Positions 8,904 to 56,712 of a stretch of DNA of 64,000 nucleotides are shown here, piece by piece. A model generated the notes under the pieces. It was given only the letters and a program-made list of their open reading frames with translations. It was not told the origin of the DNA and made no database searches. Position numbers and translations under genes: made by a program. How positions within the stretch are numbered: the stretch's first letter is position 1; each line of letters opens with the position of its first letter. Origin of the DNA: Halorutilales archaeon Cl-col2-1. GTDB lineage: Archaea > Halobacteriota > Halobacteria > Halobacteriales > Afararchaeaceae. The stretch lies in assembly GCA_041891055.1 (NCBI GenBank), contig CP169074.1, positions 1,152,001-1,216,000 on the forward strand. Direction: 5' to 3'.

Positions 8904-9007
8904 ATCTCTTATCTTTACGTCGTCGCGTATAAGCCTTTGTCAGACGCCGACGCAGACCTAACAAGAGTCAACTACCCCACCCTACTTCGCTCACCCTGAC
9001 GGGTTCG

Positions 9008-9054
9008 TCACAAGATCTCCGATCTTGTTGGCTCGGAAATCGGAGATTTCCGAA
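9008..9054 (+). repeat. Double-hairpin micro-element A1 (47 bp)
   Basis: ACAAGATC-TCC-GATCTTGT and TCGGAAATC-GGA-GATTTCCGA; flanked CG...CA. Confidence 0.85.
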
Positions 9055-9069
9055 CACTCGTTGAGGGTG

Positions 9070-9160
9070 TCGTCAGAAGCGGAGCTTCTGACTGCTCGCA
9101 AATCTACGATTTGTGATGTCTCTGAGGGGACCTCAGAGGCTCGTGAACTTTCGTTCACGA
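9070..9160 (+). repeat. Two tandem double-hairpin micro-elements A2a (9070-9116, 47 bp) and A2b (9119-9160, 42 bp)
   Basis: Pattern TG-[unit]-TG-[unit]-TG; four 8-9 bp stems with 3-4 nt loops. Confidence 0.85.
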
Positions 9161-10401
9161 TGGGGCTTGTCGGTGGACTCCGCCTCTGACTCCATAACAG
9201 AGTACGAGACAAATCCTCGATTCGGCTTCACAGTCCCCGACTTCAGGGCGAGTTGACTGTCGCCCGTCCGCCGTGAGTCATGTAGCCCACGACGGACAAA
9301 CCGCCATCCAACATTCTTCGCCGCGTTATAATCCGCATTCGCCGTCGCACCACACTTCTCACACTCGAAGAAATCTCGTTCCGTTCGGTTACCATCGCTC
9401 GTATGACCGCACTCGCAACACCGCTTCGACGTATTCTCAGGGTCAACGTACACGACCTCGATACCCAGTTCCTCAGCCTTGTACTCGACGTACTTGACGA
9501 GTTGGGCGTGCGCCCACTGGTGGAACTTACGCTTGCTCGGCATCGAGTCGCGGATGTGCGTCAAGTCCTCGAACGCGATGTGCGTACAGTCGTAGGCGAC
9601 TGCCTCCGCGAGCAACCGATTCGACACCCTGTGCAGGTAGTCACGGTTGTACCGTTCTTCGCGGTTATCCCGCTGGACGAGTGTGCGATGCGCGGACTCG
9701 GTGCCCGTTTCTTGGAGACCACCACGAACGCGCTCGAACTCGCGGTGTTCGTGCAAGAGTTCTTTCCCGGATTCGAAGTGGGCGGTGCTGGTGACAGCGA
9801 TGTTTTCGATGCCGAGGTCAACCCCGAGAACTGTCCTGTCCTCGGCGGGCGACTCGTCGGCATCGGGTTTCGGCTTACGGAAGCCGAGATGTAAATAGTA
9901 GTTGCCGTCACGCGCTGTCAGCGTCGATTCCGTCACTTCCCACTCGTCGCTGTCGAGGTATTGGTACTGGTAGCCGTCTTCGTCGTCGGGCAGTACCAAT
10001 TCGCACCGCACTCGACTGTCGGTGGTGGCGAGGGAGACGGTGTTGTCATCGAACAGGGTCATCGTGTTGGCGTCGTACTTCACCGTAGGCGTGGTGAACT
10101 CGGGTTTCGAGTAGTTGCGACCCTGTTGTTTGCGTTCATCGACACCTTTCAGGGCTTGTGCGGCTTGGAAGCACGCGAGGATGGCGTGTTGACTCCCGAG
10201 ACGAGTTTGGTCACGAACATCGTCGTATGCGAGTGACTGGAGTTTCCGCTTACGGGTTTCGTAGTGTTCCCAGCCGATGTCCGTGGCAATGTTCGCACCT
10301 GTGCGCCACTCGTCTATCGTGTCTTCGAGCAGGTCGGTCTGCTCAGGGGACACGGAGAGGCGCGTTATAGCGGTGCGTCTCAGGTAGTCGTCGTCCGACA
10401 C
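9133..10401 (-). CDS. tnpB: RNA-guided endonuclease TnpB
   Basis: RuvC motifs GVDLG, FEDL, NADYNAAKN; zinc ribbon CCECG...CEKCG. Confidence 0.95.
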   Translation of the reverse strand: MSDDDYLRRTAITRLSVSPEQTDLLEDTIDEWRTGANIATDIGWEHYETRKRKLQSLAYDDVRDQTRLGSQHAILACFQAAQALKGVDERKQQGRNYSKPEFTTPTVKYDANTMTLFDDNTVSLATTDSRVRCELVLPDDEDGYQYQYLDSDEWEVTESTLTARDGNYYLHLGFRKPKPDADESPAEDRTVLGVDLGIENIAVTSTAHFESGKELLHEHREFERVRGGLQETGTESAHRTLVQRDNREERYNRDYLHRVSNRLLAEAVAYDCTHIAFEDLTHIRDSMPSKRKFHQWAHAQLVKYVEYKAEELGIEVVYVDPENTSKRCCECGHTSDGNRTERDFFECEKCGATANADYNAAKNVGWRFVRRGLHDSRRTGDSQLALKSGTVKPNRGFVSYSVMESEAESTDKPHRERKFTSL

Positions 10402-10541
10402 ATGTTCAAAGAATGTCTGTGGTTACTTAATAGTTGGTGTCTGACTGGTGTGTGAGTGACGCGCTCCTCCGCTCGTTCCTTGAGGATGGGGACTCCGCGC
10501 TACCGCACAGTTGAATACGTTAGAAATCCAACTCTTCGGCA

Positions 10542-11636
10542 ATGTACGACCTCGTCGTAGTCGGAGGAGGACCCGCGGGTTCAAGGCTCGCTCGTAAGAC
10601 CGCCGAGAGGGATCTAGACGTCGTACTTCTCGAAAAGGGAGAGGTGGGTCTGCCTCTCGCTTGTTCGGGTCATCTCTCCGGCGAGATCTGGGACTTTCTC
10701 CCCGAGTCGGCGCGGTCGCTCGTCGAGAACGAGATACGTGGCGCTCGGTTCCACGTCGGCGACTCAACCTACACCTTCTACTCCGACTCGACAGTCTCTT
10801 ACGCCTTAGACAGGGTCGAAATGGACAGGATACTAGCACGCGAGGCGGAGAAAGCGGGCGCGACAGTTCTGGAGAGACACGAGGCTACGAGTCTGAGCGT
10901 TGACACCTCGACAGTCGAGGTCTCTACCCACGACGACGTCTTCGAGTCACGTCTCGTCGCAGGATGTGACGGACCCTTCTCGACAGTCAGGGAGTCGCTT
11001 GGATTCGACGACCCCGGCGAGATACTCCATGGCTTTCTCGGCTTCTCCGACGAGGACGGCACTGGCGACTTCGTCGACGTCTACCTCGATGTCCCGGGTT
11101 TCTTCGGATGGCGAATACCCAGAGGTGACTCGGTCGAGTACGGCGCGGCGTCGCGCTCCCACGTGCGTGAGAAGTTCGAGACGTACGTTTCTCCCAACGC
11201 CGATCTCAGAGACGTGTGTGGCGGAGGAATACCACTCGTCCCGCCGTCTGAGACTGCAGATTCCGAGAGACGCGCCTTTCTGGTAGGTGACGCCGCCGCA
11301 CAGGTCAAGCCCTTCACGGGGGGCGGTATAATCTACGGTATGACCGCCGCCGACATAGCCGCCGAGGTGATCGATCCCCGAAAACCCGGGACTCTCGCCG
11401 AGTATGAGACACAGTGGAGGGACACACTCGGGCGCGAGATTCTTCTCGGCAGACTCATAAGGAGGTTCTACGAGCTTCCTCCCTCCGTGCAGAAGACGGT
11501 TCTGGGTGTCTTCGAGGGCGAGATATACGTCGACATGGACCGTCCGACGTCTCTCTTCAACAGACGAACCGCGAAACGCGTCCTGGGAAATCTCACGGGT
11601 CGAGTAGCAAACTTTGATAATCCATCGACTCAATAA
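10542..11636 (+). CDS. Geranylgeranyl reductase-family flavoprotein
   Basis: VVGGGPAG FAD motif, GCDG, LVGDAAAQVKPFTGGGI. Confidence 0.9.
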   Translation: MYDLVVVGGGPAGSRLARKTAERDLDVVLLEKGEVGLPLACSGHLSGEIWDFLPESARSLVENEIRGARFHVGDSTYTFYSDSTVSYALDRVEMDRILAREAEKAGATVLERHEATSLSVDTSTVEVSTHDDVFESRLVAGCDGPFSTVRESLGFDDPGEILHGFLGFSDEDGTGDFVDVYLDVPGFFGWRIPRGDSVEYGAASRSHVREKFETYVSPNADLRDVCGGGIPLVPPSETADSERRAFLVGDAAAQVKPFTGGGIIYGMTAADIAAEVIDPRKPGTLAEYETQWRDTLGREILLGRLIRRFYELPPSVQKTVLGVFEGEIYVDMDRPTSLFNRRTAKRVLGNLTGRVANFDNPSTQ

Positions 11637-11642
11637 CCGGAT

Positions 11643-11870
11643 ATGGTAAAAGCATACGTTCTGATAGAGTGTGAGACGGGATCGATACAGTCGATAGTCG
11701 ACGACATACGTGGAATAGACGCAGTGACTGACTCGACCGCAGTCACGGGTGAGTACGACATAATTACGGAGCTAGAGGTCGATCAGGTCGATCAGATACT
11801 CAAGACTGTCGCGGGACGCATACACGAGCTTCCGGGAGTTGAGGACACGACGACGTGTATATCGACGTAA
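11643..11870 (+). CDS. Stand-alone Lrp/AsnC ligand-binding domain protein
   Basis: 75 aa, VTGEYDII and GVEDTTTCI. Confidence 0.88.
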   Translation: MVKAYVLIECETGSIQSIVDDIRGIDAVTDSTAVTGEYDIITELEVDQVDQILKTVAGRIHELPGVEDTTTCIST

Positions 11871-55560: not shown

Positions 55561-55629
55561 CTACACGAGATACGTCGCTCGCAGGATTAAGCCTGCTGAA
55601 TTAAGCTGTAAAGAGAAGATACGTCTATT

Positions 55630-55821
55630 CTACTCTTCGTCCTGTACGTCGTTCTTGAACCTCTCCAGAAGCTCGTCCGCCTCGGGAGTCTCGTACGAGA
55701 CGTCCCCATCGTAAGACTCAGTAGTTATCTGATCTGTGTCGGCGACGTCGTCTTCGATGTTACCCTCGTGTTTCTGCTGTTCGCTCTCGTCATAGGAGCC
55801 CATCCCCATTTTATCGCCCAC
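55630..55821 (-). CDS. Small acidic haloarchaeal protein (DUF5786-like)
   Basis: MGMGSYDESEQQ...DELLERFK. Confidence 0.75.
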   Translation of the reverse strand: MGDKMGMGSYDESEQQKHEGNIEDDVADTDQITTESYDGDVSYETPEADELLERFKNDVQDEE

Positions 55822-55906
55822 CTAGTAAAAATGGCTGAAAGTTTAAAAAAACTACTGACGCCCGAGTGGGAACCCTTTTTGTTACGCCGAGACCAACTCT
55901 ACTTTC

Positions 55907-56140
55907 ATGGAGGACATAGAGTCAGAGAGAAAAAAGGGACTGTATCTCGTGGTCGGCGGGATCGTTCTCGTGGTCATAGGGGGACTACTCAGCACCCCCT
56001 CGACACCCCTTTCAGTGACTACTAAGACAGCGAGTTTGCTTCCTGTCGTCGGTGTAGTCCTAGTGATCTGGGGAGTCGTCGTCCTCAAACGCGTCAAGGA
56101 AGACGAGATGAGAAGAAAGAGAAGATCCAAACGAGAGTAA
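55907..56140 (+). CDS. Small two-TM membrane protein
   Basis: Two hydrophobic segments and basic tail. Confidence 0.65.
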   Translation: MEDIESERKKGLYLVVGGIVLVVIGGLLSTPSTPLSVTTKTASLLPVVGVVLVIWGVVVLKRVKEDEMRRKRRSKRE

Positions 56141-56167
56141 CGTGAAGTACCTCGGGGACAAGCCCCG

Positions 56168-56263
56168 TCACAAGATCTCCGATCTTGTTGGCACGTCAAA
56201 CAAAGTTTGACGAACGTCCCGAGATCTTCGATCTCGTGTGCTCGCAAATCGAAGATTTGCGAA
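56168..56263 (+). repeat. Two tandem double-hairpin micro-elements B1 (56168-56214) and B2 (56217-56263), 47 bp each
   Basis: CG-[unit]-CG-[unit]-CG; 56166-56192 identical to 9006-9032. Confidence 0.88.
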
Positions 56264-56593
56264 CGAGGCTTCACCGTTTTGTCCATGTCGTCCAGAAACG
56301 GACGGATGGACGCATGCGAATTTAATTCCCCTCGTCCTTCCCGAGATGGGTCGGCTGGAATTAACACCCGAACACTCGCTATGTCCGTGAGGGTCGGTCG
56401 CTCCACCACGACCCGACAACTCCCGTCTCACTGCCAGTGGCAGGTTTTGAGAGGAGTCGCATTTCCAAGCCTCCGCAGTCAGCATTGGATTAAGGTCTTT
56501 AATCCGTCTTTTGGGTCTCTGACTGTACCAACGTATTGGAAATGTGTGTTGATTAACCTTTACCTTTCGACGGGCTTCACCCTCGGGGTCAAG

Positions 56594-56642
56594 TCAAGGA
56601 AAATCTTTGATTTTCCGTATCCCAAAAAGCTCTGCTTTTTGA
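56594..56642 (+). repeat. Double-hairpin micro-element W (about 49 bp), divergent
   Basis: GGAAAATC-TTT-GATTTTCC and CAAAAAGC-TCT-GCTTTTTG inside the left-end hairpin; AG flanks, boundary ambiguous by a few nt. Confidence 0.7.
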
Positions 56643-56712
56643 AGACCCCGAGGCACTCGCCCTGTTCAACCTGTAGAGTAGAAAGGAAGCCACACCTTAC
56701 GCTACTCCTAAT

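Follow-up and report, generated by a model that had tools for sequence, protein, structure and literature searches.

A genome-wide family of ~47-bp double-hairpin DNA elements in Halorutilales archaeon Cl-col2-1

Seven short double-hairpin units are present in a 64,000-nucleotide stretch of the genome of Halorutilales archaeon Cl-col2-1 (C1:1152001-1216000; C1 is contig CP169074.1). This stretch is referred to as the window. The genome comprises 2.06 Mb in four contigs and is labelled G000 in comparisons. The seven units are members of a genome-wide family of ~47-bp double-hairpin DNA elements. Members of this family share one architecture, are gained or lost as discrete pieces at exact sites, occur with flanking repeats, are found nested in other elements and are spread over related genomes. 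The main explanation, which we consider fairly probable, is that they are miniature, non-coding and non-autonomous mobile elements, similar in type to repetitive extragenic palindromic (REP) sequences or to MITEs (transposable elements of the miniature inverted-repeat type).

Results

The seven units of the window

The units are listed with their window positions and with the dinucleotides that flank them on either side (left/right).

Unit A1, 9008-9054, plus strand: canonical double hairpin of 47 bp, flanks CG/CA, model R1 72.8 bits; its parts are TC + ACAAGATC/GATCTTGT + TGGC + TCGGAAATC/GATTTCCGA + A.
Unit A2a, 9070-9116, plus strand: 47 bp, flanks TG/TG, hairpin 2 with one G-T mismatch, R1 31.1 bits.
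Unit A2b, 9119-9160, plus strand: 42 bp, flanks TG/TG; gives a tnpB frame its last codons and its stop.
Unit C, 53611-53659, minus strand: 49 bp with 4-nt loops, flanks TA/TA; in frame within a type I phosphodiesterase gene.
Unit B1, 56168-56214, plus strand: 47 bp, flanks CG/CG, R1 59.6 bits.
Unit B2, 56217-56263, plus strand: 47 bp, flanks CG/CG, R1 74.1 bits.
Unit W, 56594-56642, plus strand: non-canonical subtype with a GTATCC linker, flanks AG/AG.

On re-reading of the sequence, the coordinates and parts that an earlier note had assigned to the seven units proved exact. The length of 47 bp holds for A1, A2a, B1 and B2, the motif GC(T/A)CG stands ahead of hairpin 2 in six units, and A1 and B1 have hairpin 1 in common (30 nt at 96.7%). 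A unit begins 10 nt before its first loop and ends 10 nt past its second loop. Two 3-nt loops then make 47 bp (A1, A2a, B1, B2), and the two 4-nt loops of C make 49 bp. B1 and B2 are arranged as CG-B1-CG-B2-CG. Unit W is placed in the loop of a native hairpin (CCTCGGGGT...ACCCCGAGG), and copies of it occupy the corresponding site of the same element at C1:35972 and C1:1000838. When folded as single-stranded DNA (ssDNA), all seven units form exactly the two predicted hairpins. Their fold energies correspond to z-scores of -3.9 to -6.8 relative to dinucleotide shuffles, and for none of the units is any of 200 shuffles as good.

A genome-wide family of hairpin arrays

The earlier note expected further copies, and a scan of the 2.06-Mb genome reveals ~135 arrays with 360-390 hairpins. 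Perfect hairpins with a 9-bp stem and a 3-nt loop occur 114 times, compared with 8-12 times in three Markov-3 controls. The genome has 168 adjacent hairpin pairs, the controls 2, 10 and 4. Chance or low complexity is ruled out by these controls together with the shuffled folding. A coding tandem repeat is ruled out as well, the array period being 23-27 nt and no multiple of three. If stems of at least 6 bp are admitted, 387 hairpins in arrays of 2 to 9 are found, with 192 distinct arms; if one stem of at least 7 bp is demanded, 135 arrays with 359 hairpins remain.

The 5' arms of the 387 hairpins have the consensus (T)C-G-N-R-A-A-T-C. The loop is closed by a C-G pair in 316 hairpins and is 3 nt long in 299, and the stem has 8 or 9 bp in 242. 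GAA/TTC, GGA/TCC, AAA/TTT, AGA/TCT and GTA/TAC jointly account for 240 of the 299 3-nt loops. An alignment of 21 units gives the canonical unit as TC-hairpin1-(T)GGC-TCGnnAATC-nnn-GATTnnCGA-A, bounded by CG on both sides. Viewed as modules, the hairpins have their tag (CGTC or CGTT) on the outer side and their tail (GCCA/TGGC) on the inner side. A unit is a tail-to-tail heterodimer with its tags pointing outward (CGTC or CGTT in 19 of the 21 aligned units), and in arrays the units join head to head via a shared dinucleotide. In the arrays, which reach up to nine hairpins, an outer linker of ACG(T) type alternates with an inner one of GCC/GGC type. The shuffling of halves seen in the window extends to the genome, where a few hairpin-1 types (CGAGATC, TCAAACTC, ACAAGATC, TCCAGATC) pair freely with a few hairpin-2 types (TCGGAAATC, TCGCAAATC, TCGTGAATC, TCGCTAATC, TCAGAAATC). 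Further subtypes have GTAC or ATAC linkers or stems ending in CGC-nnn-GCG.

Covariation of the stems, likewise anticipated, is found at 8 of 17 pairs, which have changes on both sides (21-unit alignment, 49 cells; 0 of 500 shuffles reach this value). The aligned units were picked for perfect stems, and the percentage paired follows from this selection. Loops are flipped to their reverse complement between orthologs in two of 25 hairpins compared. In both cases (loci L052 and L049; G000 versus its congener G001) the stems are identical and the loops are reverse-complemented (ttt/aaa and tac/gta), corresponding to small palindrome inversions. A palindrome at L078 is not of this family and was disregarded. 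GAA and TTC loops are equally numerous because of such flips. Only three pairs of near-identical dimers have unrelated sequence on both flanks. The family is therefore old and diverse and shows no recent burst.

Filled and empty sites

Exact empty sites are found in paralogs, in an ortholog of the same genus and in environmental contigs, as predicted for discrete insertions. The TnpB element that hosts A1, A2a and A2b has a paralogous copy on contig C2, which is 92% identical and lacks exactly A1 and exactly A2b. At the A1 site (between C2:39439 and 39440) 49 nt are missing and 51 of 51 flank bases are identical. The A2b site in the same copy reads GATG/GGGCTTG (here and below, a slash within an empty site marks the point of insertion). 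A2a is missing from a third, related copy at C1:526530 (GAGGGTAGGGCTTG), and the homologous site of B1, CCC[CG]AGG, is vacant at C2:112959. One insertion sequence (IS) is present in six copies whose TTCG/CTCG site holds no dimer, one dimer (four copies, with differing stems) or two dimers; a copy in G001, 95.5% identical, has yet another stem combination there. A screen of the 135 arrays yielded ~15 distinct filled/empty events among paralogs, with insertion sizes of 43-51 bp (one dimer), 73 bp (three hairpins) and 96-97 bp (two dimers).

The ortholog of the unit C host gene in G001 (98% protein identity) lacks exactly 51 nt. Fifteen further syntenic regions of G001 were aligned with MAFFT, and some units are present in one genome only: insertions private to G001 measure 51, 49, 51 and 155 nt (the last with three dimers), those private to G000 48 and 97 nt. 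Some arrays differ by more than 200 nt in these alignments. In environmental DNA, a 19.6-kb metagenome contig (two runs of one study) skips 53609-53660, which corresponds to unit C, with long sides (255 letters). A contig from another metagenome run spans 53066-54360 with unit C in place. Metagenome joints that skip B1 together with B2, or W, were discounted; their sides are shorter than 30 letters and they may derive from other copies or organisms.

The flanking 2-bp repeat

The identical dinucleotides around the units were interpreted in the earlier note as target duplications. This holds in so far as identical flanks are more frequent than expected by chance and also occur in arrays with dinucleotides other than CG; several insertions have no repeat, and A1 is flanked by CG/CA. 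Identical dinucleotides at a distance of exactly 10 nt from the loops are found in 22 of 94 isolated dimers, compared with 11.0 expected from marginal frequencies (permutation p = 5e-5; the chosen offset is the maximum of 64 offset pairs tried). The empty sites keep one copy of the dinucleotide: CG (C2:112959), GC, CA or ACA, TG (A2b) and TA within GATA (unit C).

An AG stands at the right flank and at each of the two inter-dimer junctions of the array at C1:979447, which has paralogs at C1:533469 and C2:51551. A two-hairpin version at C2:69963 shows that 96 extra bases (two dimers) went in at an AG. The window array has the corresponding arrangement TG-A2a-TG-A2b-TG. Junctions and right flanks that read AG or TG argue for a real duplication. 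Repeat-less insertions are mostly of non-canonical subtypes.

Taxonomic spread

A covariance model of the canonical unit was used to search related genomes; its counts for G000 and G001 are limited by how many candidates were scored (150, 144 or 39, depending on the search), which makes them lower bounds that cannot be compared between searches. At least 126-157 matches are present in G000 and at least 126 in G001. Relatives at the level of the order, belonging to other families, have 36, 21, 17, 13, 10 and fewer matches. A match at E <= 0.001 is present in 29 of 41 relatives, and the units of other genera retain CGTC...TGGCTCGnnAATC...GATTnnCGAACG. In a phylum-wide sample of 151 genomes, 16 have matches at E <= 1e-5, eleven of them in the same order (including G000). 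Matches also occur in another family (1.3-1.8 Mb, low G+C), in four of its five genomes, and in a further family, in one of three; the other families of this sample have no match at this threshold. A scan of ~185,000 species genomes with a 20-base motif returned 18 stretches, all archaeal, with ~1 expected by chance (an estimate). They belong to 16 metagenome-assembled genomes (MAGs) of Halobacteriales, one record of Halorutilus salinus and one MAG titled Euryarchaeota.

In the low-G+C family, CA...CA flanks are found in three of 12 units fetched, though the model favors CG; this, too, speaks for a true duplication. Five of these 12 units directly follow CAT (L101, L103, L105, L108 and L109, in genomes G067, G077 and G086). 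CAT is a reverse-complemented start codon, and these five units, three of them with CA...CA, may be sited at gene starts. In the 120-contig draft of G001, several units lie 100-400 nt from contig ends (C96, C42, C8 and C70). Hairpin arrays probably break short-read assemblies.

Host elements

The arrays are concentrated near TnpB genes: 39 of 135 lie no more than 300 bp from a TnpB match, compared with 3.1 expected, in a genome with 34 such matches. This genome encodes acidic proteins, and its TnpB genes share ~77% DNA identity with those of haloarchaeal plasmids, which marks the organism as a haloarchaeon. Two elements and one gene host the seven units of the window.

Host element of A1, A2a and A2b, 8967-10515, minus strand: IS1341-type element, extent taken from the alignment with the C2 paralog.
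tnpB of this element, 9133-10401, minus strand: protein P0002, 159 bits with NF040570 (TnpB family).
Host gene of unit C, 52353-53783, plus strand: 476 aa, Pfam Phosphodiest, with IRESEDSRAHENESSRD encoded by the unit.
Host element of B1, B2 and W, 56148-56678, minus strand: IS605-type derivative without tnpB, PATE-like, ~530 bp.

A1, A2a and A2b occupy the 3' right-end region of their host element, where the omega-RNA would be encoded. A2b (9119-9162) gives tnpB its last eight codons and the stop. The TnpB encoded on C2, which is 98% identical and without A2b, aligns to residues 1-414 of 422. The A2b insertion therefore rewrote the C-terminal tail of TnpB.

The PATE-like element is itself mobile. 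In G001 a related element is found elsewhere, at a site that is vacant in G000 (L055). Furthermore, a metagenome contig joins 56141 directly to 56678, i.e. lacks the element there. Rfam detects a match to sot2652 (IS1341-type 3'-end RNA, omega-RNA) at 56369-56462 on the minus strand, with 26.7 bits and E = 0.001 (sub-threshold, the gathering score being 61). One native hairpin of the element has its 3' arm split by B1 and B2, and the loop of the other contains W. Beside the only tnpA of the genome, directly behind its stop codon, an array of six hairpins occupies the loop of a native hairpin. In these ISs the native subterminal hairpins are G+C-rich (CCTCGGGG..CCCCGAGG, CCCCGCCC..GGGCGGGG), unlike those of the units, and are interrupted by units. 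An inverted repeat of at least 7 bp flanks seven of the 135 arrays, compared with 0.7 expected. Insertion into loops of pre-existing hairpins is thus real, and as the main mode it was rejected, for it concerns a minority. The hexamer GTGAAG precedes the PATE-like element of the window (56142-56148), its relative in G001 (L055) and a 48-bp non-canonical dimer at C2:72371, which hints at an IS605-style target for these three elements.

Units inside genes

Twenty-seven of the 135 arrays lie within open frames of at least 200 aa, and 92 are intergenic, in ~12% of the genome; gene calls are crude longest open reading frames, and 'intragenic' is overcalled. In-frame units with Pfam domains on either side are found in archaeal SAM (S-adenosylmethionine) synthetase, in an M24 peptidase, in ThiN, in a thioredoxin, in a tyrosine integrase and, as three hairpins, in a Hel308-type helicase. 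The same is true of the phosphodiesterase with unit C. The insert in SAM synthetase comprises 18 aa (YDVRESEDSRAHEDSKSP) and is present in G000 and G001 and missing in four other genera. The unit C peptide IRESEDSRAHENESSRD is related to this insert, and RESEDSRAHE is present in both unrelated proteins. Compared with relatives, the inserts measure 51 nt for unit C and for the G001-only unit at L063, and 18 codons in SAM synthetase. Such lengths would be expected if survival in genes is restricted to those divisible by three.

Among intergenic arrays, 27 are in convergent, 40 in tandem and 25 in divergent spacers, compared with ~18, 47 and 26 expected from spacer length (crude calls). A bias towards gene 3' ends, as in bacterial REPs, is weak at best. 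Two single loci of G000 are recorded here. At C1:641649-646685 (L070) a family-B DNA polymerase (PolB) frame of 1679 aa has intein and LAGLIDADG domains, and one non-canonical double hairpin sits in the intein region. At C1:242811-242890 (L062) an 83-nt segment missing in G001 has a run of 12 G between the tRNA-T-arm-like sequences GAGTTCAAATC and GATTTGAACC.

Search for the mobilizing enzyme

The RAYT-like HUH/Y1 partner envisaged in the earlier note did not materialize. RAYT is absent, and the sole intact Y1 protein is an ordinary IS200/IS605 TnpA (159.5 bits with NF033573, IS200; 26.1 bits with NF047646, RAYT, cut-off 80) that tracks unit abundance poorly. Y1 genes are present in 16 of the 41 relatives, including the four unit-richest genomes G000, G001, G011 and G005. 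No Y1 gene was found in G034 (10 units, 99% complete), G024, G027, G047 and G067. The carriers without Y1 include several genomes that have 5-25 units (two are 99% complete), and Y1 is present in genomes with 0-2 units (G018, G022, G023, G029 and G030). A REPtron-like layout, in which Y1 is regularly flanked by units, was rejected: of nine Y1 loci, two (L003, L066) have a full-length match, L068 has two weak ones (E ~0.001) and six have none.

No match to the reverse transcriptase domain RVT_1 (PF00078) is present in the genome, and an RNA or retro-copying route was set aside for this reason. An IS630-type parent was rejected, since DDE_3 (PF13358) also has no match in the genome. MITEs of the IS630/Tc1-mariner kind fit poorly as well, the duplications being mostly CG and TA only once. 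The neighbors of the largest arrays are genes for an ABC transporter, isocitrate dehydrogenase, fumarase, peptidases and plasmid helicases or nucleases. IS200/IS605 transposition leaves no target duplication. The non-CG 2-bp flanking repeats therefore argue against an HUH/Y1 route, and a staggered 2-bp insertion by a trans-acting enzyme is favored.

Matches to described families

No Rfam family is matched at the gathering score by any unit. The region 8800-9500 gives nothing at E <= 1, and 56000-56800 gives only the sub-threshold sot2652 beside the units. A tRNA-His (GTG) at 734-806 on the plus strand is the sole RNA gene that Rfam or ARAGORN detects in the window. The literature searched gave no description of the present family from archaea; ISfinder and the Haloquadratum repeat sequences lie outside this comparison.

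Discussion

Explanation and alternatives

The core proposal of the earlier note, that the units are minimal, non-autonomous, discrete insertions that encode nothing, is supported by the exact empty sites. Its suggestion that they are recognized by ssDNA structure rather than by sequence is not supported: the units retain marked sequence features, namely an AATC-NNN-GATT core next to the loop, CGTC/CGTT tags on the outside and a GGC/GCC linker on the inside. The module has, in order, a CGTC or CGTT tag on its outer side, an A-rich arm of 8-9 nt with AATC, AGC or AAC at its end, a loop of 3 nt with a closing C-G pair, the arm complementary to the first and, on the inner side, a GCC/GGC tail. The inserting unit normally consists of two modules joined tail to tail with unlike stems, giving 47 bp with 3-nt loops or 49 bp with 4-nt loops. 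In the proposed mechanism it would prefer to land at a CG dinucleotide, often in a GA-CG-TC-like context, and IS605-type or TnpB elements with their subterminal hairpins would be frequent targets. Insertion would duplicate 2 bp of the target. The preferred site would be recreated at both ends of the unit, and arrays would grow by repeated insertion at the junctions. In genes, insertions of a multiple of three would persist as hydrophilic peptide loops. We infer that a trans-acting enzyme cuts with a 2-bp stagger, reading the conserved tag and the AATC/GATT core in a hairpin or cruciform. This enzyme is probably not the IS200-type Y1 TnpA.

Several observations weigh against an explanation by mobility. 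The vacant sites could also be precise deletions, and recent copying is rare, as the three near-identical dimer pairs indicate. Perfect stems in a diverse family could reflect selection for a host function. Seventeen of the 22 identical flanks are CG, and taken alone these are indistinguishable from a CG carried by the element; the excess of non-CG identical flanks among isolated dimers is small (five cases). No repeat is present at the well-matched insertions C2:72371 (48 bp) and C1:368851 (51 bp) or at the 97-bp and 48-bp differences from G001, and the flanks of A1 are unequal (CG/CA). Finally, no candidate enzyme was found; the genes beside the largest arrays are of the ordinary housekeeping or plasmid sort, and none recurs.

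The units may alternatively be minimal IS200/IS605-type transposons, in which the hairpins are fused left and right ends that the Y1 TnpA moves in trans as ssDNA and inserts 3' of a short target. We consider this route, which is close to that suggested in the earlier note, unlikely. It would agree with the concentration of units in IS605-type elements, with the six-hairpin array right behind the stop codon of the one intact TnpA and with the presence of Y1 in all four unit-richest genomes. The C2:72371 dimer and the PATE-like element both follow GTGAAG, the dimer and the G001 copy being without duplication, and 52-bp terminal-only IS605-type derivatives of Haloquadratum are suggested to be mobile in the available text of PMC3119063. 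However, IS200/IS605 transposition makes no target duplication, and the flanks of the units covary (CG, TG, TA, GC, CA, and AG in one array). The G+C-rich native hairpins are interrupted by units rather than resembling them, and the unit ends do not match them. Moreover, Y1 was not found in several unit carriers and is present in genomes with 0-2 units, only two of nine Y1 loci have a full-length unit match, and the TnpA is of IS200 type with no RAYT.

Quite unlikely, in our view, is copying without any transposase, by template switching at stalled forks with 2-6 nt of microhomology at the ACG/CGT junctions of a hairpin-prone donor. Boundary repeats do have between 0 and 6 nt (none, G, CG, CGT, CGTT, GATA, GACGGT), modules are inserted in whole numbers including three hairpins and two to three dimers, no dedicated enzyme turned up, and the loop flips in two of 25 hairpins show strand-switch events at these palindromes. 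Yet the geometric boundaries, 10 nt outside the loops, give a 2-bp repeat, with longer matches being targets that resemble unit ends. Each inserted dimer of the AG and TG arrays has its own copy of the local dinucleotide, a pattern better matched by successive staggered insertions than by copying of a donor block, which would usually give CG junctions, and repeated hits at the same IS site suggest that a protein chooses the site. It is more improbable still that the hairpins are primarily sites selected by the host (for protein binding, cruciform formation, RNA 3' ends or RNA stability) and that their spread is secondary. Such selection would account for stems that stay paired amid 192 arms in 387 hairpins, for the two-sidedness of every in-stem change in the 21-unit alignment, for the AATC-NNN-GATT core, which is kept by the units of Halobacteriales and by those of another family in the phylum, and for the 92 of 135 arrays called intergenic. 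The pairing is in part circular, as the units counted were picked for perfect stems. Presence and absence vary between close relatives at 94-98% identity, units pile up in insertion sequences and coding regions, and no clear bias towards gene 3' ends is seen (crude calls).

The mobile-element explanation can be extended, tentatively and with considerable doubt, to an undescribed transposition system of Haloarchaea and at least one neighboring lineage of the phylum. In this system an enzyme encoded by the host or by an element would read a hairpin or cruciform with the CGTC tag and the AATC-NNN-GATT core and would insert 47-bp double hairpins at a dinucleotide, with duplication of 2 bp. If so, the units would be the smallest known archaeal transposons. 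They would also steadily supply essential enzymes with peptide insertions and would naturally disrupt TnpB elements at their subterminal hairpins and omega-RNA regions.

Significance

Work on short structured REP-like repeats has dealt almost solely with bacteria, and their movement is still debated. The present family is a clean archaeal case, and there is a real chance that its mechanism is new. Exact empty sites in close relatives and in environmental DNA make mobility directly testable. The in-frame insertions in SAM synthetase and the Hel308-type helicase are natural protein-loop-insertion experiments, as in Rickettsia. Units in TnpB right ends and subterminal hairpins may disable or modulate these elements and the guide RNAs that are used in genome editing. 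Gene callers, and repeat finders with a lower limit of ~50 bp, are likely to miss the units.

Comparison with known systems

In place of the analogues suggested in the earlier note, CGTC-tagged bacterial REPs, Rickettsia palindromic elements and the small Haloquadratum repeats that target IS605-type elements are the better ones to name. Cyanobacterial SDR repeats of 21-27 nt, for which Elhai and colleagues reportedly proposed an RNA route in 2008, and fungal mitochondrial double-hairpin elements resemble the units in their size below 100 nt, compensatory changes, nesting and inferred mobility. They differ in lineage, size and sequence, and the RNA route of the SDRs contrasts with the lack of a PF00078 match in the present genome.

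Rickettsia palindromic elements (RPEs) are bacterial, single long palindromes of ~100-150 bp, whereas the inserts described here are double hairpins of 51-54 nt. In-frame insertions in conserved genes that are missing from orthologs are found here in the unit C gene and in SAM synthetase. RPEs, which are also mentioned in PMC3733652, similarly insert palindromes in frame into essential genes and thereby add hydrophilic peptide segments.

REP, BIME and REPIN sequences are high-copy hairpins with alternating orientation and linkers, and the doublet has been proposed as the mobile unit (PMC2817692 and PMC3116915, available text). The alternation of ACG(T) and GCC/GGC linkers in the present arrays corresponds to this pattern. 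The units differ in having no GTAG tag (the GTAG consensus at the foot of the palindrome is absent among the 21 aligned canonical units), no RAYT, two hairpins that are not copies of one another and a 2-bp flanking repeat.

The SMR-A repeats and PATEs of Haloquadratum walsbyi (Dyall-Smith et al. 2011, PMC3119063) are haloarchaeal and transposase-free as well. In the accessible sections of that paper the small repeats are described as inserting by preference into the near-terminal palindromes of IS605-type elements and PATEs, and the mode of mobilization of SMR-A is called enigmatic. The present units in and around native subterminal hairpins are a parallel to this. According to the same sections, SMR-A repeats are ~110 bp long, more than 95% alike within a type and bounded by terminal inverted repeats, with no target duplication, and terminal-only PATEs have 52 bp and one palindrome. 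By these descriptions the present family differs from both, though an overlap is possible.

The best match in kind is the CGTC-tagged REP superfamily, which includes RPE-4 and RPE-6 of Rickettsia and dRS3 of Neisseria (Di Nocera et al. 2013, PMC3733652, available part). The likeness would be one of kind, as the elements are too short and too varied for homology to be inferred. As far as the available part of that paper goes, the superfamily occurs in five bacterial phyla, archaea not being among them, its loops have 4-5 nt (3 nt in 299 of 387 hairpins here), head-to-head dimers dominate (a tail-to-tail inserted unit here) and a 2-bp target duplication is not reported. The present units have the layout CGTC-stem8-loop-stem8-TGGC / GCCA-stem-loop-stem-GACG. 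CGTC-tagged REPs likewise have a CGTC-type tag at one foot of an 8-9-bp stem and a CCA-like tail at the other (GCCA/TGGC here). They also form dimers and arrays with heterogeneous stems and loops and common heterodimers, have some intragenic copies and lack a dedicated transposase (PMC3733652, same part).

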